Assembly: GCA_043808405.1 (NCBI GenBank)
Contig: JAZDEX010000039.1
Span: 1-48,288 of the forward strand
DNA length: 48,288 nt
Direction: 5' to 3'
From: Candidatus Omnitrophota bacterium
Lineage (GTDB): Bacteria > Omnitrophota > Gorgyraeia > Gygaellales > Profunditerraquicolaceae
Below, in pieces: positions 8,107-48,288 of this stretch. The position numbers and the translations under genes are program-made. Within the stretch, counting starts at the first letter, position 1. Each line of letters opens with the position of its first letter. The notes beneath the pieces are model-generated. The model ran no database searches. It saw nothing but the letters and a program-made list of their open reading frames with translations, and had not been told where the DNA came from.

Positions 8107-8173
8107 GCCGATAAGGGGCAGCAATAATTTTCTTTAGAAAATATTTCGTCTCTAGTTTATCTAATTTATTAAA

Positions 8174-8214
8174 AGATTGCTTCGCCCCGCCATGGCGGGG
8201 CTCGCAATGACACT
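8174..8214. repeat. REP/RPE-like palindromic element, single unit (family A)
   Basis: AGATTGCTTCGCCCCGCCATGGCGGGGCTCGCAATGACACT; related copies at 13156 and 43442-43527. Confidence 0.85.
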
Positions 8215-13152: not shown

Positions 13153-13155
13153 AAA

Positions 13156-13203
13156 AGATTGCTTCGTCGTCCCGCCGTTGGCGGGACTCCTCGCAATGAC
13201 ACT
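13156..13203. repeat. REP/RPE-like palindromic element, single unit (family A), inside the EPS operon
   Basis: AGATTGCTTCGTCGTCCCGCCGTTGGCGGGACTCCTCGCAATGACACT, 3 nt after the stop codon. Confidence 0.85.
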
Positions 13204-13224
13204 GTTTTGGGTAGAAATGATAAA

Positions 13225-14361
13225 ATGAATCGCGTAAAGGTTTTAATATTAGCTGTTTTGCTAACAATTTTCTTAGGGCAGAGTTTTGCCTGGGCCGGCG
13301 TAAATAAGAAGTCGGTTTTTTTGATTGTCCAGGGGATAGATTCGGGGACTTCAGCGAAAAAATTAGACAATGTTATATTTTCTTTAACTAAGGCTAAGAT
13401 TCCCTTTTGCCTGGCAGTTAATGTAGGTAATGGCTTTGCGGCGAATCCGTATTTGGCTAAGAATATTAATGCCAGCTTATCTTTAGGCGGGGCAGTTTTA
13501 TTGGACGCCGGGACATTAGCTGATGGTAATCAAGTGGCTGTGGCTATAGATAAATTGATTGATAATAATATTATTCCTTTTGGGGTTATTTGCGGTAAAG
13601 CTGCTCGGGATGTTGTAAATAACAGCTCACTTAATCAGTATTGCTCTACATTAATTACCGAAGGTGATATTCCTTTTAAATCCAGCGACGATAAATTCCA
13701 GACGGTATTATCTAGCAGTTTTAAATTAGGCAAAAAAAGCGATTTTTATGAGAATACTGTTTTTTACCAGCAGATAAATAAAATGAGCCTTCTAAAGGAT
13801 CCTTTTTTCGGGATAAGCGTGGATTTGGATTTTGACAGCGCAGCCTTGCTTAAGCTGGCGCATAATCTTAAGAAACAGGGGTATGTTTTTCAGGATCTAA
13901 AATCTTTGCCGAGCTATGTTCGTTCCAGAAACGCGGCAATATTTTTTAAGCCGGAATATTATGCCAATATTCCAGCCAGGGAAATAGTTTACGCGGATAT
14001 TTTAAAATTGAGCCTGCTTAAGTTTGAGGCCAAGAATAATTATGTTGAGGAGAGTTTGTTTGACCAGGCGTTTAAGCTTATCTCTAGAAAGACATCAGGC
14101 GCATTAGTTAATGGGACAGTGCTTATTGACCTTATTGGTAAAAACGGGATATTCGTTGTCCGGCAGCTGCCTTTAGGCTCGGGGCAGCTTAAGGAAGTTA
14201 AGCAATCTTTATGGGCTTTTATATTTGGCAAGACGTCTGCCGGAATAATTGAAGATGCCTACCGCCTGGTCGCGGCAAGCGTATTCTTGATGACGTTTTT
14301 TATGATGCTTTATCTCATATTTATATTATTTTCTAGCCGAAGCAAAAGCAGGGGATTATAG
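13225..14361 (+). CDS. Degenerate DUF2334-like periplasmic protein with C-terminal membrane anchor
   Basis: Signal peptide from ATG 13225 (the track start 13159 lies in the repeat); segments align by eye with the 9598 protein; C-terminal TM helix. Confidence 0.6.
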   Translation: MNRVKVLILAVLLTIFLGQSFAWAGVNKKSVFLIVQGIDSGTSAKKLDNVIFSLTKAKIPFCLAVNVGNGFAANPYLAKNINASLSLGGAVLLDAGTLADGNQVAVAIDKLIDNNIIPFGVICGKAARDVVNNSSLNQYCSTLITEGDIPFKSSDDKFQTVLSSSFKLGKKSDFYENTVFYQQINKMSLLKDPFFGISVDLDFDSAALLKLAHNLKKQGYVFQDLKSLPSYVRSRNAAIFFKPEYYANIPAREIVYADILKLSLLKFEAKNNYVEESLFDQAFKLISRKTSGALVNGTVLIDLIGKNGIFVVRQLPLGSGQLKEVKQSLWAFIFGKTSAGIIEDAYRLVAASVFLMTFFMMLYLIFILFSSRSKSRGL

Positions 14362-29558: not shown

Positions 29559-29588
29559 AGGCGTTACGGCTAGCCGTAACGCCTTTTT
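29559..29588 (+). terminator. Terminator after the tRNA
   Basis: Perfect palindrome AGGCGTTACGGCTAGCCGTAACGCCT followed by TTTT. Confidence 0.8.
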
Positions 29589-29668: not shown

Positions 29669-30415
29669 ATGGCTGTATTCCAAATAAACAGAAAAGCTGT
29701 TATTTTATTTTTGATATTTTTATTTCTGGGGATTTTTTTAAGCTTCGCAGCGCATGCGCCAAAATTCCTATATTACCTTAGTTTCTTTCGCAGCCGCGGT
29801 TTCCAAATAACAATTAAGATAGCTATTGTCCTGGCATTTTGCCTTTTAATATTCCGCTGGTTTACTAAGCGGGTATTACCTCAAAACGCGCTAAAATTAG
29901 TTTACGGGGTTATATTTTTACCGCTTATTCTTTTGCCGGTTTTTAGGTGTTATTTTAAAGTGCCTTATGTATTTTGCCGCGCCTGCCCTAATAAATGCCC
30001 TTGGGGAATATCAAGGGCATTTATCTTGAGCGCTTTCTTTGCGCTAAATTTATCAGGAAAGTTTTGGTGCTTCTTTCTTTGCCCCTTGGGCACTTTTCAG
30101 GAATCTCAGGCGCAGATCTCAAAACAAAATATTAAATTATCATTCCATAGCGGCTGGTTGGCTTATTTGGTTCTGATAATTGTAGCCTGGATGTATTTTC
30201 TGGCCTTAGCCGGGCCCCATGTTGTAAGTTATTTTTTTGCTGGGCAATATGATTGGATGAAAATAACCGTAGGCATTGCTATTTTAATTCTTGCCATAGC
30301 ATTTTTTATCCCAAGGTTTTGGTGCAGGTATTTTTGTCCGGTTAGCACTATTGCGGATTTAGTTTTAGATCTGCGCAGTTACTTATATAAAATCTTCTTT
30401 AAGTCTAAACAATGA
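29669..30415 (+). CDS. Membrane protein with Fe-S binding Cys motifs (Fer4_5/NapH-like)
   Basis: Multiple TM helices; CRACPNKCPWG, KFWCFFLCPLG, RFWCRYFCP. Confidence 0.75.
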   Translation: MAVFQINRKAVILFLIFLFLGIFLSFAAHAPKFLYYLSFFRSRGFQITIKIAIVLAFCLLIFRWFTKRVLPQNALKLVYGVIFLPLILLPVFRCYFKVPYVFCRACPNKCPWGISRAFILSAFFALNLSGKFWCFFLCPLGTFQESQAQISKQNIKLSFHSGWLAYLVLIIVAWMYFLALAGPHVVSYFFAGQYDWMKITVGIAILILAIAFFIPRFWCRYFCPVSTIADLVLDLRSYLYKIFFKSKQ

Positions 30416-34930: not shown

Positions 34931-35080
34931 ATATTTATATTTTATGGTGTTCGTAGTTTTATGTACAGCTTATGGAATATATTATGTTGTAAAATTAAAG
35001 GCAAAGAGAAAGGTAAAGGTATAATTTTCTTGCTAAGTAAGCGGCTTTGTGATATAAAAAATACTAAGGAGGGACAAGCT

Positions 35081-35512
35081 ATGTTGAAGAAAGGTGTATT
35101 AGTTGTAGTAGCAGTTTTGGCTTTTGCCTCTGCTTATGCCCAAGATGGCACAGAGCAGGCGAAGGAAGTTTCTCAGGATCAAGTTATTAGCGTAGCAGTT
35201 GCGCCGCCGGCTACGCCGGCTCAGGGTGTTGCCAAAGACCAAGTTATAAGCATCGCGACTGCGGCAGTTAAGGAAAAAGGATTTGCCGCTGAAGAAGCGC
35301 AGATAATTTACGATGATGGCAACAAGCTATGGCTTGAGCAAATAGGTAAAATCGCCGGGGTGGACAATTCTCCTAATTACGGTGTGCTTAAGAGAGGATT
35401 TCTTAAGAATTATTATACCGTATATTTTGATTTTAAAGAGCCGCTTAAAGATGTCTGGGTTTTTATAGACAAAGATACTGGCGAGGTGTCGGAAGTATAT
35501 CAGGAGCAATAA
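35081..35512 (+). CDS. Exported protein of unknown function
   Basis: AAGGAGG and ATG 35081 (track start 34961); signal peptide ending AYA; short internal duplication DQVIS; C-terminal WVFIDKDTGEV. Confidence 0.65.
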   Translation: MLKKGVLVVVAVLAFASAYAQDGTEQAKEVSQDQVISVAVAPPATPAQGVAKDQVISIATAAVKEKGFAAEEAQIIYDDGNKLWLEQIGKIAGVDNSPNYGVLKRGFLKNYYTVYFDFKEPLKDVWVFIDKDTGEVSEVYQEQ

Positions 35513-35524
35513 TTTATTTTTTTA

Positions 35525-35566
35525 AAGAGCCCTCTGTCATTTTTTTAAGACAGAGGGCTCTTGTTT
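35525..35566 (+). terminator. Hairpin/terminator
   Basis: 14-bp stem AAGAGCCCTCTGTC/GACAGAGGGCTCTT. Confidence 0.7.
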
Positions 35567-43079: not shown

Positions 43080-43167
43080 GAAACCGCTTTCTTTTGAGCC
43101 CCTTTTAGCCTTGCCTTTTACCTATATATAAGGCATACTTTATCCACAGAATATTATTATTAACAAA

Positions 43168-43211
43168 GTGGCTATCGTTTAAATGGTAGCTACGCTTGTG
43201 GGTAACTTTAA
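43168..43211 (+). repeat. Hairpin plus DnaA-box-like composite element (family B), copy 1
   Basis: GTGGCTATCGTTTAAATGGTAGCTAC-GCT-TGTGGGTAACTTTAA; a perfect TTATCCACA also lies at 43140-43148. Confidence 0.7.
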
Positions 43212-43214
43212 TTT

Positions 43215-46200
43215 ATGCCTAGCAAAACCCTATTTAAGATACTCTCATTATTTATTTGCTTCCTGCTTATTTTTGATCAATCAGGTTTAGCTCAGACTGC
43301 GGCTCAGTTGAATATAGCTGGCTATTTGAGCGGGCTGAATAATGCTGCTATCCAAAATAAATTCCGCCCTTTGCATTTAAGGTTTCTGCAGTATATTGCA
43401 GAGAATAATAGCTTTAAGCTATTAATAGACAAGGGGAGCGGCAGTGTCATTGCGAGCGAGGCTGAAGGCCGAGCGAAGCAATCTTTCAAGATTGCTTCGT
43501 CGCCTGCGGCTCCTCGCAATGACACTGAGTTAGAAGCGGCCACTAAAAATCTCCTAAATTACTTCTTCATCGGTTTAACCCTTCCTAATGATAGCTTTTG
43601 GGTAAATCTCCGCCCTGACTCGCCTGACAATATTATTGATGACGCTTTAGCCAAAACCGATGTGGGTAAAATTCTTCTTGAAGCGGATGTTCAGTTAAAG
43701 AAAGACACCGCTAAATTCACCTCGCCCGATACCCCTGAAGGGAAAGTTTATTGGAGTAAGCTTTATAAAAAAGCAGGGGAGCTTTTTGGCTCTGAGAATA
43801 TTACTATTCCTACTTTAACCCGGCCTTGGATTGTCCCGGGTGAAATTATTATTTATGAATCTAAAGGCAGCGCCTACGTCTATAAGGCCAGCTTGAAAGT
43901 AATGCTGGAGGAAGACTATCTTAGGGATGCCTCTAGTAGTCGACGTTTAAACGTCGACTACTCTGTGGATAACTTTAAGGATGAGAGATTAAAGCAACTT
44001 AATAAATACTCCACAGAATTAATTAAAGAATCTATTATCCCAAAACTTACCAAAGAAATAAATACCTCTAAGCGTTACGCCGCCCTTCGACAGGTATATT
44101 ATTCGTTAATTCTCGCGCAGTGGTTTAAAACGCGTTTTAATGTAGGGGCACCCCTTGTGGGTGCCATAAACGATAGGGCGGGCACAAGGCCCGCCCCTAC
44201 AAATATGATTAATCTTATTGATTCCAAAAATCTCACCAACCTTACCTCCAAAACCGCTTGGTCCAAAGATACCTATTTCCAAGAATACCAAAAATCTTTT
44301 AAAGATGGCGAGTATAATTATCAAGAGCCAGTTTATACTATGCAGGGTAAAAATATTAGGAGTTATTTCTCTGGTGGGCTTACACTGGGTAAGGCTGTAG
44401 CTGGTGCTGTTTCATCTGATCCAGCTGGTTTAGCCGGCGCAGGCACCGCGAGAATAGAACATTCTCTGAAAGCATCACCTGATACTGTGGCTAATCTTGC
44501 GGTTACCGCTGAATTAAATCCAAATAACCCTTCTGAAGTTACAAGAGTTACAGCAGGAATCCCAGAAGAGGCGTCCTTGCCCGAGGTTCCTCAAGCCCAA
44601 GGCCAATCAATAGGCGCCTCTTCTTCAAATATTGATTTAGATGATAGTACATCTTTAACTGATTTAGGCCAATCAACCGGTAAATCCGGTTTAATAGGGA
44701 AATATGAGGTTATAGACGGACCGGTATTCAATGAAACCCTAGGGATACTTGTAGTAAGGTTAAGAGATATCGAAACTCAAAAAGAAAGAACCGTTAATCT
44801 AAAATTAGCAAAAAGAATTTCGCTTAAAGATACAAAAAGAAAATTGCAGGATAATCAAATTTTAATGAACAATAAAATAGCAGGAAAGATTGTTAAATGG
44901 TTTTTAGATATATTTCATGGTGATATATTAGCCATAGAGGATAACGAATATGGTATTTTTGGTGCTTCAGGCAGCACGATCATTGTAACAGATAAGCTTT
45001 CAGCCAACCCTATAGTATTATTTCATGAAGTAGGGCATAGTGCTATAGATTCGGGGGCTGTAAGTGTTGATGAAATAATAGATTTCTTATCACCGGAAGC
45101 GAAGTCGTGGTTTGATGCACATATATCTAAGGGAGGGCGAGCAAATCTACGTGTACATTATGCTTTAAGGGCTTTGCAAAGGGATATATTTGGCGAAGAC
45201 GACAAAGAGTTAACCGAAGTAATTAAACATAGCTTAGAAGGACAAGCCAGCGAACATCTAACGCCCAGAAAATCCGTTGTTAATATATGGCAGGCAATTA
45301 AGGGTCGAACTGCTATTTTAATTGGTAATGACAGACAAATAAGAAATTATTTAGCTTTAGAGTTGGAAGATTTTAGACAGACGTTTAATCCTGAAAGGTT
45401 AAAAAGAATTATTTTTCAATTAATTGATGCAAGGCGGCTCGAGTATCTCGATCCATTGTTAAGCGTTTTATGCAGTTTTAAATATATGAGCTATATGGAT
45501 ACACTTGCTCTGCAAGGCGAATCAATGGTACATGCCATTAATAGATCTATTGCTGATATAGAGCATAAACTGGTGCAAGCAGGGAATTGGAGTTTTTCGG
45601 AAAAAATGTCACGTTGGGGACGCGATGCCATAGTTAAAGCAGACTATATGAGAATAGATACAGATTTTAAGGAACAGGTTTTTAAAACAGGTAAGCGTGT
45701 TGATACAATTGAAGCAGTATTAGCCCAAATTGATGCCGCAAAATTTGGCGATGCCTATGTCCTTGAGAGAGTATTAACTTATGCTGAATATCTTACTTTA
45801 TTTAAAGGTAAGACCTATGAATTAGGTATTTCCATTGTAGAGCATGAGGGAAAATATTATACGGTTATTATTAGGGGCAATAAAACATCTTGTTATATTT
45901 TAGATGGGCTATTAGGTATTCATATCCATCCTGGAAATGGAATATATACTGTTTTTGCCTCGTGGGGCGATATTGAATCACTAAGGGCATCTTCTAGTAA
46001 CGATAATTATATCTACCACGAAGCATCTAAAAGCCTTCTTAAATATAGCATAATGGGAAATTATAAGCAGGATTATATTTTGATTAAGTTAGATGATGGC
46101 AGGGAATATAAATTTTCGATTAAGCATGATGATTTTAAAAATGTTCTAATCTATGGTCCAATGGTTGGCTTGGGAGAAAAGAATGCTGTTGTAATAGATA

Positions 46201-48288
46201 CAGCTTGTAAGAAAATGTTGGAGTTATTACGACAGAAAGCGAATGCGTTTACAGTTTATTATCCGATTGGAGTAAGTATTAATTTTGATCCTACTATTAC
46301 TATGGAGGGAGAGTTGCAAGAAGTAGGTAGTCGGATTTCTACTTTCTTACAAGCTGTTGAGGCCGCGACTGCTATAACTAGCAATGAAGTAATAGGCGAA
46401 TCATCTAAACAAGCCATCTTGACGCCAATAGATGAATTGTTAGCGAGAAAAAATGCGGAAATTATTTTTTCTACTCCGCAAAGCCCTGAGAAGAGATATC
46501 ATCTTAAGATACAAGAAGACTTTATGAGCCCTGGATTAGGGGAGAAAAAAACAGAGTCGATGTTTTCAGTAGAAACTGTTTCTCAAGAAGGAGAAAACGG
46601 GTATCCAGTAGCAATGCTGACAGGAATTACTATGGATAATGATGGTATTGTAACTTTTAATTGGATTATTACTTTAGATTATCAAAAAGTATTTAAAGAA
46701 ATTCAGGGATTACGTTCAGCCTGTGAGCCAGGAGATATGACTTTAATCGATACCATGGCTCTTTATTTCGTAATCGGTTCTCCTGAATATGCTGCGCAGG
46801 CGAAATTTCTATGGAAGCATCTCACATCGTTACAGATTAAAACTGATGAAGATGTAACAAAATTTTTTCAGAATGCTCCTAAGAATTTGCGAGGTGAAGG
46901 TGTGGGTAGCGCTTGCCTTGAATTTCTGACTAGTTTTATGCCGATCGGAAGTAGAATAAAATCTGCTTTGGCAAATAAAGAATCTTTGGATGCGTTAGAT
47001 AAGGGAGAGAGGCCTGAAAATACTTTAATTGGTAAAATGTTCCAAAGGTTAGGGTATGAAGTAAATCAGAAAAGTGATGATGGGTTTAGTATGTTCCCCG
47101 GCTATATTTTGGAGAAAAGAAGATTACCATATTTTAAAATAGTCTGGTGGAATAAAGATATACTCGGAAAACATTTTTTGCCATCCAACTCTACTCCCTC
47201 AGCCGCCGCTAAGGCTTCGAGCGCAGTGGTTAGCAATGAACAAGCTGGGTTATATATAGAGGATCAAATTAGAGCAATAGGAATGTATGCGGATACGCTT
47301 GAGGGCCGGCAGGGTAAATTAAAAGAAATGCTGGCAAAGGGCTTTGCCTACATAAAAGATGGTATTGTATTTATTAGAATACAGGGTTTATTAAATAAGG
47401 GGCAATTTGGACATATAGGCTTAGGGCAAACTTATGGCCAGTCAGTTGTATATATCGATCAAGATTACGCCGAGAATGCTACTATTCAAGGCCATGAATT
47501 AGAAGAAATTAGATTATGGAATCAGGCTTTAGATAATGAACTTAGAGGAGAGGTAAAGTCCCTCGGCGAAGTCCGCGCCTGGATGCGGGAAAATTTACAA
47601 GAAGCTGTAGATTTAACCGAGAAACTCCACGCCCAAGCAAATCAGAAATTTAATGTTGATGTATTCGCTAAAAGCTCAGGCATTATCACACAGCGCGATG
47701 GGGTAGAGGAATTAAGGTCCGGCGAGACTCCGAGCGTGGCGGCTTTTCCGCCACTTCAACAGAATGAAATGTCTGCTATAGTGGGCTCAAGCGTAAAGAT
47801 AGCTGATGATCGAGTCTTACCTGGTAATAAATTAACTATTGATGCGTTGCAACAGATGCTTGATGAGATTTATCCTGGAGAGAAAAAAGAAGAAACCTTC
47901 TGGCAGTATCGAGGTAAGAATTATCTTTTATTGTCGACGCAACATTACGTAAGAGTCGGTAGTTTTGTTTTTCTACCATATGGTATTTGGCGCCAAGAAA
48001 AAGAAAAATTATTACCATATCGAGATTTTATAATTGTATCTGAATTACGTAGAGGCAATGAAGTAGGTATTTTAAATTTTCCATATGGAAATCAAACCCG
48101 ATTATCAATTTTAATGCTTCAGGCTTATGCTATCCTAATTAAGGAACAAGTTATTTTAGATGTAGGTAGTGGTAGTGACGCGATTCTTTCTATAGTTGCA
48201 AGTCGCTTGGGAGCAAAAAAAATTATTGGCGTTGAACTAAACCGTGAATCAGTAATATTGTCACATGTGTTTTTAAAAATAAATGGAG
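43215..48288 (+). CDS. Large secreted multidomain protein, 5' part (at least 1691 aa; runs off the window)
   Basis: Hand-translated with no stop from ATG 43215 to the end: MPSKTLFKILSLFICFLLIFDQSGLA signal; FWVNLRPDSP...RPWIVPG...LKVMLEEDYL...RSYFSGG domain; HEVGH, HIHP..S..D, RGEGVG, HELEE and LDVGSG motifs. Confidence 0.9.
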   Translation, partial: MPSKTLFKILSLFICFLLIFDQSGLAQTAAQLNIAGYLSGLNNAAIQNKFRPLHLRFLQYIAENNSFKLLIDKGSGSVIASEAEGRAKQSFKIASSPAAPRNDTELEAATKNLLNYFFIGLTLPNDSFWVNLRPDSPDNIIDDALAKTDVGKILLEADVQLKKDTAKFTSPDTPEGKVYWSKLYKKAGELFGSENITIPTLTRPWIVPGEIIIYESKGSAYVYKASLKVMLEEDYLRDASSSRRLNVDYSVDNFKDERLKQLNKYSTELIKESIIPKLTKEINTSKRYAALRQVYYSLILAQWFKTRFNVGAPLVGAINDRAGTRPAPTNMINLIDSKNLTNLTSKTAWSKDTYFQEYQKSFKDGEYNYQEPVYTMQGKNIRSYFSGGLTLGKAVAGAVSSDPAGLAGAGTARIEHSLKASPDTVANLAVTAELNPNNPSEVTRVTAGIPEEASLPEVPQAQGQSIGASSSNIDLDDSTSLTDLGQSTGKSGLIGKYEVIDGPVFNETLGILVVRLRDIETQKERTVNLKLAKRISLKDTKRKLQDNQILMNNKIAGKIVKWFLDIFHGDILAIEDNEYGIFGASGSTIIVTDKLSANPIVLFHEVGHSAIDSGAVSVDEIIDFLSPEAKSWFDAHISKGGRANLRVHYALRALQRDIFGEDDKELTEVIKHSLEGQASEHLTPRKSVVNIWQAIKGRTAILIGNDRQIRNYLALELEDFRQTFNPERLKRIIFQLIDARRLEYLDPLLSVLCSFKYMSYMDTLALQGESMVHAINRSIADIEHKLVQAGNWSFSEKMSRWGRDAIVKADYMRIDTDFKEQVFKTGKRVDTIEAVLAQIDAAKFGDAYVLERVLTYAEYLTLFKGKTYELGISIVEHEGKYYTVIIRGNKTSCYILDGLLGIHIHPGNGIYTVFASWGDIESLRASSSNDNYIYHEASKSLLKYSIMGNYKQDYILIKLDDGREYKFSIKHDDFKNVLIYGPMVGLGEKNAVVIDTACKKMLELLRQKANAFTVYYPIGVSINFDPTITMEGELQEVGSRISTFLQAVEAATAITSNEVIGESSKQAILTPIDELLARKNAEIIFSTPQSPEKRYHLKIQEDFMSPGLGEKKTESMFSVETVSQEGENGYPVAMLTGITMDNDGIVTFNWIITLDYQKVFKEIQGLRSACEPGDMTLIDTMALYFVIGSPEYAAQAKFLWKHLTSLQIKTDEDVTKFFQNAPKNLRGEGVGSACLEFLTSFMPIGSRIKSALANKESLDALDKGERPENTLIGKMFQRLGYEVNQKSDDGFSMFPGYILEKRRLPYFKIVWWNKDILGKHFLPSNSTPSAAAKASSAVVSNEQAGLYIEDQIRAIGMYADTLEGRQGKLKEMLAKGFAYIKDGIVFIRIQGLLNKGQFGHIGLGQTYGQSVVYIDQDYAENATIQGHELEEIRLWNQALDNELRGEVKSLGEVRAWMRENLQEAVDLTEKLHAQANQKFNVDVFAKSSGIITQRDGVEELRSGETPSVAAFPPLQQNEMSAIVGSSVKIADDRVLPGNKLTIDALQQMLDEIYPGEKKEETFWQYRGKNYLLLSTQHYVRVGSFVFLPYGIWRQEKEKLLPYRDFIIVSELRRGNEVGILNFPYGNQTRLSILMLQAYAILIKEQVILDVGSGSDAILSIVASRLGAKKIIGVELNRESVILSHVFLKING
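43442..43527. repeat. Family A palindromic doublet, in frame within the large ORF
   Basis: 15-bp terminal IR CAGTGTCATTGCGAG/CTCGCAATGACACTG and 12-bp central IR CGAAGCAATCTT-TC-AAGATTGCTTCG. Confidence 0.9.
43935..43978 (+). repeat. Family B element, copy 2, in frame within the large ORF
   Basis: Perfect 28-bp palindrome AGTAGTCGACGTTTAAACGTCGACTACT, then C-TGTGGATAACTTTAA. Confidence 0.85.
44141..44201. repeat. GTAG-type REP doublet (family C), in frame within the large ORF
   Basis: TGTAGGGGC...GCCCCTACA ends; hairpins GGCACCC-CTTGT-GGGTGCC and GGGCGGGC-ACAAG-GCCCGCCC with complementary loops. Confidence 0.9.

Follow-up and report, generated by a model that had tools for sequence, protein, structure and literature searches.

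The DNA studied here, referred to below as the window, is the entire contig C39 (48,288 nt) of a metagenome-assembled genome of Omnitrophota, which we call G000 (907 kb in 55 contigs, ~65% complete). At its end lies an open reading frame (ORF) on the forward strand, 43215-48287, that is predicted from the ORF list and its translation to be the 5' part of a gene for a large modular secreted protein. The frame comprises 1691 codons, is open throughout and runs off the end of the contig. It is laid out as a hydrophobic N-terminal leader, whose signal peptide was read by eye from the sequence, followed by a conserved head domain, a low-complexity linker and a cargo. The last part of the cargo is a PrmA-like methyltransferase stretch, interrupted by the contig end, that gives the sole Pfam match of the gene (PF06325, residues 1628-1684). 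The head domain, delimited by a search of the own genome and by database matches, spans residues 1-392 (43215-44390, forward strand), and within it three different palindromic DNA elements are read as part of the protein. These elements, and the loops that hold them, are the subject of this report.

All three elements are given on the forward strand and were characterised by their stems, predicted folds and translations. The first, at site 1 (43442-43527), is an 86-nt head-to-head doublet of a repeat that we call family A, with perfect outer arms of 15 nt and perfect inner arms of 12 nt; in the open frame it is translated as SVIASEAEGRAKQSFKIASSPAAPRNDT (SVIAS...PRNDT), and its predicted RNA fold has an energy of -58.2 kcal/mol (z -10.3). 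The second, at site 2 (43935-43962), is a perfect 28-nt hairpin of the build GTAG-stem-TTTAAA-stem-CTAC, read as SSRRLNVDY (-18.0 kcal/mol, z -5.3). The third, at site 3 (44141-44201), is an inverted doublet of two GTAGGGGC-type hairpins of the repetitive extragenic palindrome (REP) kind, resembling the arrangement called a REP doublet forming a hairpin (REPIN). It is translated as VGAPLVGAINDRAGTRPAPT, and its predicted fold (-35.3 kcal/mol, z -3.9) consists of two hairpins under an outer closing stem with GTAG/CTAC ends. For each element, 0 of 200 shuffles folded as well, and the longest perfect stems of 15, 14 and 12 nt compare with a mean of 6.3 nt in 200 codon shuffles of 43215-44474. GTAG...CTAC ends are present at 43936-43961 and 44142-44200, whereas the family A doublet ends instead in GTGTCATTGCGAG. 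The three palindromes are real and far beyond chance, and the original prediction of three palindromic elements inserted in frame in one domain was borne out: the 1691-codon frame is unbroken, the peptides are as claimed, and the folds go beyond those of the shuffles.

Occupants of the three loops

The shared N-terminal head domain is ~390 amino acids long and has at least 7 paralogues in G000 (contigs C39, C15, C1, C43, C16, C24 and C8), whose domains are 54-75% identical. It has no match in Pfam, and Foldseek searches of the PDB with two AlphaFold models of the domain returned nothing at E <= 0.001; the best matches (E 0.38 and 0.13, to respiratory-complex subunits and to NheA) were discarded as meaningless at template-modelling (TM) scores of ~0.1. 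A search of the ESM Atlas with the head domain gave only hypothetical Omnitrophota proteins, with scores below 0.85. The family is large: 7,354 cluster representatives among 1.84 billion match the domain at E <= 1e-3, and 403 of 412 candidate stretches of public genomes code for relatives of it, the best 80 of these stretches being mostly titled Omnitrophota or Omnitrophica and the rest 'uncultured Planctomycetales' or 'bacterium'. The domain is present in 32 of 41 genomes (G000 and 40 relatives), with up to 17 matches per genome. Homologues are 410-5,745 amino acids long, and their cargo Pfam domains are very diverse. A collection of 5.8 billion proteins held no close orthologue of the 43215-48287 gene, the nearest sequences being its own paralogues at ~62%.

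From one paralogue to the next, the three sites change their occupants. Site 1, after LLxDKG, holds the family A doublet in C39, a GTAG doublet in C15, C43 and C16, and a 28-nt REP in C24 and C8, and is empty in C1. The 28-nt REP is read there in two frames, as VGNGRDRSL (C24) and as RERSRPFPT (C8); the third frame, as read from the sequence, would give a TAG stop. Site 2, after MLEEDY, is taken by GTAG-TTTAAA hairpins in C39 and C8 and by AGACCNN/TCAGCNN heptamer arrays in C15, C1, C43, C16 and C24. Site 3, after WFK, carries a GTAG doublet in C39 and a 28/29-nt REP in C15, C43 and C16, and is empty in C1, C24 and C8. The residues flanking the inserts are invariant across the family, and in six paralogues the inserts leave open frames of 712-2431 codons unbroken. 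In C8 a 1-nt frameshift (C8:40100-40130) divides the paralogue within a conserved KKDTAK stretch, off any repeat, which marks either a pseudogene or an assembly error. A TTTAAA-like motif common to the surroundings of the three sites was considered and dropped as unconvincing in an AT-rich genome.

The same three positions stand out among homologues. When the first 470 residues of the 150 best (distant) homologues were aligned and insertions of at least 5 amino acids found in at least 2 sequences were counted, those within residues 30-392 fell exclusively at the three sites, and the short basal loop was modal at each of them (83, 91 and 101 of the 150 homologues at sites 1, 2 and 3). The proposed insertion hot spot in loops of this domain is supported by these length differences, in paralogues and homologues alike; the accompanying expectation of clean indels at loops held as regards confinement to the three loops but not in every case as regards cleanness, since loop residues next to the insert are often replaced.

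Site DNA was examined in 108 domain copies, which include 6 from G000, genes fetched twice, and kin. Expansion by at least 6 amino acids was found at sites 1, 2 and 3 in 45, 43 and 29 of these copies; none of the sites was expanded in 51 copies, one in 20, two in 14 and all three in 23. Occupancy of the sites is thus correlated, with all three expanded in 23 copies against ~5 expected and none in 51 against ~28, where the expectations come from marginal frequencies and leave kinship and repeat load uncontrolled. Many of the inserts are visible palindromes or 7-8-nt tandem repeats. A count of hairpins with at least 10 pairs gave 38 over the 16.3 kb of site DNA, compared with 32 over 129.5 kb of other domain DNA and 15 over 145.5 kb of downstream ORF; by eye, 2 of the 32 non-site hairpins resemble inserts, and most are conserved coding sequence or lie outside the domain.

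A few individual loci may be mentioned here. At site 3, L099 and L112 each have a GTAG hairpin in the identical position, and the two stems show three compensated differences between nearly identical flanks; L117, with flanks 87% identical, has nothing at this site. Yet another stem variant, the third, is found at site 2 of L040, a locus of another genome, where it runs into a ..VDN tail as in the window gene.

Predicted structures agree with the placement of the inserts. In the AlphaFold model of the window-gene domain (mean predicted local distance difference test score, pLDDT, 70.5; predicted TM score, pTM, 0.65), residues 76-97, 244-246 and 315-328 have a pLDDT below 50, and these are the three inserts. 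They are positioned between a strand (66-72) and a helix (103-122), between two helices (232-240 and 257-284), and after a helix (286-308). In the model of the C1 paralogue, sites 1 and 3, which have no insert, form short loops modelled with confidence (means of 83-90 over 10-residue blocks), and the repeat-coded site 2, residues 216-241, has a pLDDT below 50. The models support a view of the three sites as floppy loops between predicted secondary-structure elements, and they bear out the earlier suggestion that the inserts, here of low confidence, would be found at loops.

Dispersed repeats in the genome

The repeats in the head domains belong to dispersed families, and across paralogues and homologues the three loops vary in the repeat that they hold, if any. 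The unit of family A consists of GTGTCATTGCGAG, a variable GC-rich hairpin and CGAAGCAATCTT, and in G000 the 143 matches to its end motifs resolve into 55 doublets and 33 singles, 3 of the singles resembling chance matches. The ends are constant, GT...AC, in 53 of 53 strict doublets, and no target-site duplication was seen in the flanks of any of these 53 copies. Family A thus has the perfect inverted ends of a miniature inverted-repeat transposable element but no direct duplication, and occurs also as single half-units, so that we do not assign it to that class. Two single units lie between genes of the window, both on the reverse strand: one at 8173-8213, found in the window search, and one at 13155-13204, which overlaps only the mechanical TTG start of ORF 13159-14361.

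The GTAG hairpins are likewise dispersed. We counted 34 single GTAG palindromes in G000, 28 of them being the 28-nt REP GTAGGGAACGGTCGCGACCGTTCCCTAC or a close variant of it. The related inverted doublets, GTAGGGGC...GCCCCTAC, number 8 and are all of one layout; 4 of the 8 lie in head domains of this family and 4 outside any ORF of at least 80 amino acids. The exact palindrome at 43935-43962 is a single copy, unique in the window and in G000. It shares its GTAG-stem-TTTAAA-stem-CTAC build with the GTAG hairpins of the genome, and its only partner is the C8 hairpin, which agrees with it in reading frame and ends and has a different stem. Arrays of the AGACCNN heptamer number 57. The original prediction had also placed families A and B between genes of this window, which is true of A (the two single units) only, because the other two elements have single window copies, the 28-nt palindrome being unique and the GTAGGGGC doublet having no second copy there.

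GTAG-type loci are concentrated in the head domains. The 42 such loci of G000 (33 repeat-like single palindromes, one C24 variant and 8 doublets) divide into 11 in head domains, 3 in other genes and 28 outside verified genes. The head domains make up 7,946 nt, or 0.88% of G000, yet they hold 11 of the 42 loci, so that the enrichment of coding REPs in this gene family, proposed as a check, was found for the GTAG type. About 64 kb of G000 is uncovered by ORFs of at least 100 amino acids, and per kb the head domains carry ~3 times as many GTAG-type loci as non-coding DNA. The rest of the seven paralogue ORFs, ~27 kb with long linkers of variable length, holds none of the three repeat families. 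These densities argue against loop tolerance as the sole explanation and suggest that new repeats prefer DNA with a hairpin or repeat remnant, or else that occupied loops are favoured.

In-frame repeats are a habit of the genome and not special to this gene, because 12 housekeeping genes on other contigs of G000 (loci L118-L129) carry the same repeat families in frame. The hosts encode GyrB, PolA, PrmC, a family-9 glycosyltransferase (GT9 heptosyltransferase), MnmG, the type III pantothenate kinase CoaX, CbiB, CobT, a PNP-like phosphorylase, ProC, a YggS-like protein with three inserts, and a FolC-like ligase; loci L119-L129 are on contigs C8, C16, C26, C30, C46, C49, C7 and C35. In 10 of the 12, a Pfam match spans the insert or matches flank it on both sides, while PrmC and FolC have their best matches solely downstream of it. 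The first reading of the window had found no such inserts in the other ~40 genes, which holds for these families within the window but not genome-wide. The gyrB gene (C1:10989-14036, L118) contains an intein (Pfam Intein_splicing, residues 469-646), and the intein in turn contains an in-frame single family A unit at residues 572-586. AGACCNN heptamer arrays also occur inside the PrmC, YggS, FolC and GT9 genes.

Comparison of the closest paralogues bears on how fast the loops change. The pairs C43-C24 (80-93% identical per segment) and C39-C16 (76-88%) have different occupants at all three sites, and the 28-nt REPs among the inserts do not deviate from the consensus of the genome; as far as the paralogue sequences go, the occupants of the sites change faster than the paralogues diverge. 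Matrices of per-segment identity among six paralogues gave no mosaic signal at the sites: C43 and C24 are nearest neighbours in all four segments, and C39 and C16 in segments II and III. Because segments keep the same nearest neighbours, there is no sign of the sites acting as recombination junctions. Nor was a frameshift at a repeat array seen in the matches examined, and where a relative gives a split match, its parts share one open frame. Phase variation by repeats of non-3n period was rejected as a candidate, given no frameshift at a repeat and a C8 frameshift that lies away from repeats.

Four of the 28 non-genic GTAG-type loci lie 18-22 nt before the ATG of paralogues (C1:21924-21951, C15:22580-22607, C16:24811-24838 and C8:39611-39637), each being a REP of 28 nt, or 27 nt in C8. 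The window gene has only a degenerate hairpin at this position. That candidate, at 43168-43193 on the forward strand, is possibly a decayed GTAG-TTTAAA-CTAC hairpin on a weak comparison by eye (the GTAG tag has 1 mismatch and the stem 4 of its 6 pairs), where the four paralogues have an intact REP. This place in the leader is perhaps one more hot spot, the fourth, or else has a regulatory role. A conserved leader, AAGAAACCGCTTTCTTTT ... TATATAAGG ..., is common to C15, C1, C8 and the window gene (43080-43214), and the C16 upstream region differs from it. The C43, C24 and C16 paralogues have another conserved upstream block, GGATGGAGG(T/C)C(T/C)TTAAGGCTG ... AAACCGGGTCGACTTTTTAAGTCA(A/G)(T/C)(C/T)CGGTT, which terminates in a T run in C43 and C24 and diverges in C16; going by its sequence, the block looks like a terminator or a structured leader.

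Three other strong hairpins of the window fall outside the three repeat families. One is a 13-nt perfect stem at 29991-30024, within ORF 29669-30415; another is the intergenic 26-nt perfect palindrome AGGCGTTACGGCTAGCCGTAACGCCT at 29559-29584; and the third is a terminator-like 14-nt stem followed by Ts at 35525-35562, after ORF 34961-35512.

Origin of the inserts

We consider it probable, at roughly 70%, that the palindromes are dispersed selfish repeats of REP type that landed in three short, presumably surface-exposed loops of a conserved head domain. Two kinds would have landed: one is the GTCATTGCGAG family, and the other comprises GTAG-tagged hairpins together with inverted doublets of these. 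Once in the loops, the inserts would add just 9-28 disordered residues, and they would persist because the frame is kept, no in-frame stop arises and so few disordered residues are added. Their mobilisation could be the work of a transposase of the Y1 or REP-associated tyrosine transposase (RAYT) type. The hot spot itself may owe its existence to loop tolerance together with a preference of new repeats for hairpin or remnant DNA. We suggest this second component, which may be put as 'repeat begets repeat', because the loops are more densely occupied by repeats than either the non-coding DNA or the variable linkers of the paralogues.

Several observations pull the other way. The counts from the 108 copies are not independent, because duplicates and kin are included among them. 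Within a loop the insertion points scatter over 6-22 nt, and the inserts often take the place of residues of the basal loop, so that the sites are zones and not precise targets. Family A is not enriched in the head domains of G000, which hold 1 of its ~85 loci. A search for near-identical genes of which one is filled and the other empty at a site yielded no pair, the flanks being at best 77-87% identical, and each insertion event is for that reason deduced and not seen. A Y1/RAYT gene (PF01797) was not found in G000, a genome 65% complete; PF01797 is present in 29 of the 40 relatives, and beside 12 Y1 loci of these relatives there were no convincing GTAG hairpins, only one weak GTAG palindrome. 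Finally, the stems at site 2 differ at every position between C39 (TCGACG/CGTCGA) and C8 (CGGAGG/CCTCCG) with complementarity kept, and these compensated stems, like those of L099 and L112, may reflect selection that acts on the hairpin as such. Stems can also be kept complementary without selection by a known mutational process, the templated correction of one arm by the other in quasi-palindromes. The compensated stems fit selection on the hairpin, exchange of one REP for another at the same GTAG/CTAC ends, or such arm-to-arm correction.

It is conceivable, though in our judgement rather improbable, that the loops are adaptively hypervariable. The head domain would then present an exposed surface for recognition or evasion, and repeat insertion and slippage of 7-8-nt units would be selected as a cheap means of varying loop length and sequence, or of frameshifting genes off and on. 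Such selection would account for 11 loci in 7.9 kb of head domains set against 28 non-genic loci per ~64 kb of uncovered DNA, for the lack of repeats in the length-variable linkers of the same genes, for a family-wide occupancy of 27-42% per site, for the correlated occupancy of the three sites (23 of 108 copies with all expanded, ~5 expected) and for the presence of repeats of non-3n period inside coding sequence. However, these repeats are also found in 12 housekeeping enzymes that have no obvious use for variation, no frameshift was seen at repeat arrays, and kinship or the genome-wide repeat load can yield correlated occupancy. A closely allied proposal, to which we would likewise give only a small chance, is that the loops form a repeat-fed hypervariable surface, to which hairpins and slippery 7-8-nt repeats are drawn and where they are kept for diversifying the exposed face of a cargo-carrying head; a Y1 transposase recognising GTAG/CTAC might perhaps swap hairpins at the same ends. 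If that were true, the surface would be a diversity generator built from REPs and not from a retroelement, in the cargo export of host-dependent bacteria.

We think it quite improbable that the hairpins are functional as nucleic acids, stabilising the mRNA, pausing the ribosome at boundaries between domains during export or serving as sites of recombination between paralogues, with the peptides as by-products. Very stable predicted folds of -58, -18 and -35 kcal/mol, each equalled by 0 of 200 shuffles, speak for such a role, as do the compensated stems (at all positions between C39 and C8, in three pairs between L099 and L112) and the REPs that four paralogues have at one set place in the 5' leader. 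Against this, 51 of the 108 homologue copies do without an insert at any site, one and the same site hosts unrelated families, including non-palindromic tandem repeats, segments of the paralogues give no mosaic signal, and arm-to-arm correction, the mutational process mentioned above, can preserve stems without selection. An artefact of misassembly at repeats, or an untranslated pseudogene, is very improbable in spite of the fragmentation of the assembly into 55 contigs, the exit of ORF 43215-48287 at the contig end and the 1-nt frameshift of the C8 paralogue, since frames of 712-2431 codons are kept through inserts in six paralogues, the same pattern recurs in ~100 copies from many independent assemblies, the flanking residues are invariant family-wide, and inserts occur only in stop-free frames.

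The family has some general use. In-frame palindromic repeats are known, both as Rickettsia palindromic elements (RPEs) and as intragenic REPs, and what sets the present case apart is its scale and regularity. Here three loops are empty in ~45-70% of copies and otherwise filled by different repeat families. With several copies per genome, thousands of proteins and three defined loops, the family is therefore a natural replicated experiment, one that could be used to ask whether targets are chosen or selectively filtered, how fast repeats turn over, and whether they are raw material for the evolution of loops. Annotators and structure predictors should expect disordered peptides coded by repeats, such as VGAPLVGA..RAGTRPAPT or VIAS..KQS, in genuine Omnitrophota proteins.

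Comparison with known systems

REPINs and the RAYT transposases were reportedly described by Bertels & Rainey in 2011, and the layout of a REPIN is said to be that of two inverted REP hairpins. The element at 44141-44201 is like a REPIN in having two related inverted hairpins with GTAG/CTAC ends. It is unlike REPIN/RAYT systems in that no RAYT was found in the incomplete G000 and that convincing GTAG hairpins are lacking beside the 12 Y1 genes of relatives that were inspected.

The protein family has its own point of comparison in the modular, very long Omnitrophota proteins (West-Roberts et al. 2023, 10.1101/2023.11.21.568195; 2026 preprint, 10.64898/2026.06.07.730766). As far as the portions of these preprints considered here describe them, the two groups share a secreted or membrane-associated character, N-terminal regions without known domains and diverse enzyme-like cargo, whereas the relatives of the window gene mostly measure 1,000-5,700 amino acids and are not giants. 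The word stem 'palindrom' has 0 occurrences in either preprint. Among the matches listed for literature joining Omnitrophota with palindromes, nothing was relevant by title or start of abstract, and the repeat motifs, searched as literal text, matched only unrelated primers.

GTAG REPs (also CGTC REPs) occur as singles and inverted dimers, dispersed and mostly extragenic, according to the sections drawn on here of Di Nocera et al. (2013, PMC3733652). A minority are in frame in known protein genes and encode 20-30 amino acids, intragenic REPs are most numerous in Opitutus terrae and Rickettsia conorii, and different REPs are found at about the same recB site in two Xanthomonas species (PMC3733652). 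The hairpins at 43935-43962 and 44141-44201 resemble these REPs in being short, palindromic and GTAG-tagged. They differ from the GTAG REPs of those sections in that one multi-copy family takes a quarter of the GTAG-type loci of G000, at three fixed loops, and in that the pattern recurs in a protein family that is phylum-wide and includes a second repeat family as well as 7-8-nt tandem repeats.

A further parallel in coding sequence is with RPEs (Ogata et al. 2000, 2002, as summarised in PMC10969869 and PMC3733652), selfish palindromes that lie in frame in many unrelated, apparently functional Rickettsia genes, at positions that the fold can accommodate, and have a length of ~150 bp (PMC10969869), as these papers state in the parts relevant here. 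Like RPEs so described, the repeats of G000 lie in frame in GyrB, PolA, MnmG, CoaX, ProC and others, in genes that are kept open and conserved, and in this the genome as a whole resembles Rickettsia. We treat them as an analogue of RPEs and not as members of that group, because the organism is an omnitrophotan. The Omnitrophota elements are also shorter, at 26-86 nt, and belong to another phylum; and where RPEs are described as scattered over unrelated genes, these repeats gather in one family of paralogues, at the same loops. Coding sequence with selfish palindromes is known; what is unusual here is their regularity across a very large protein family.

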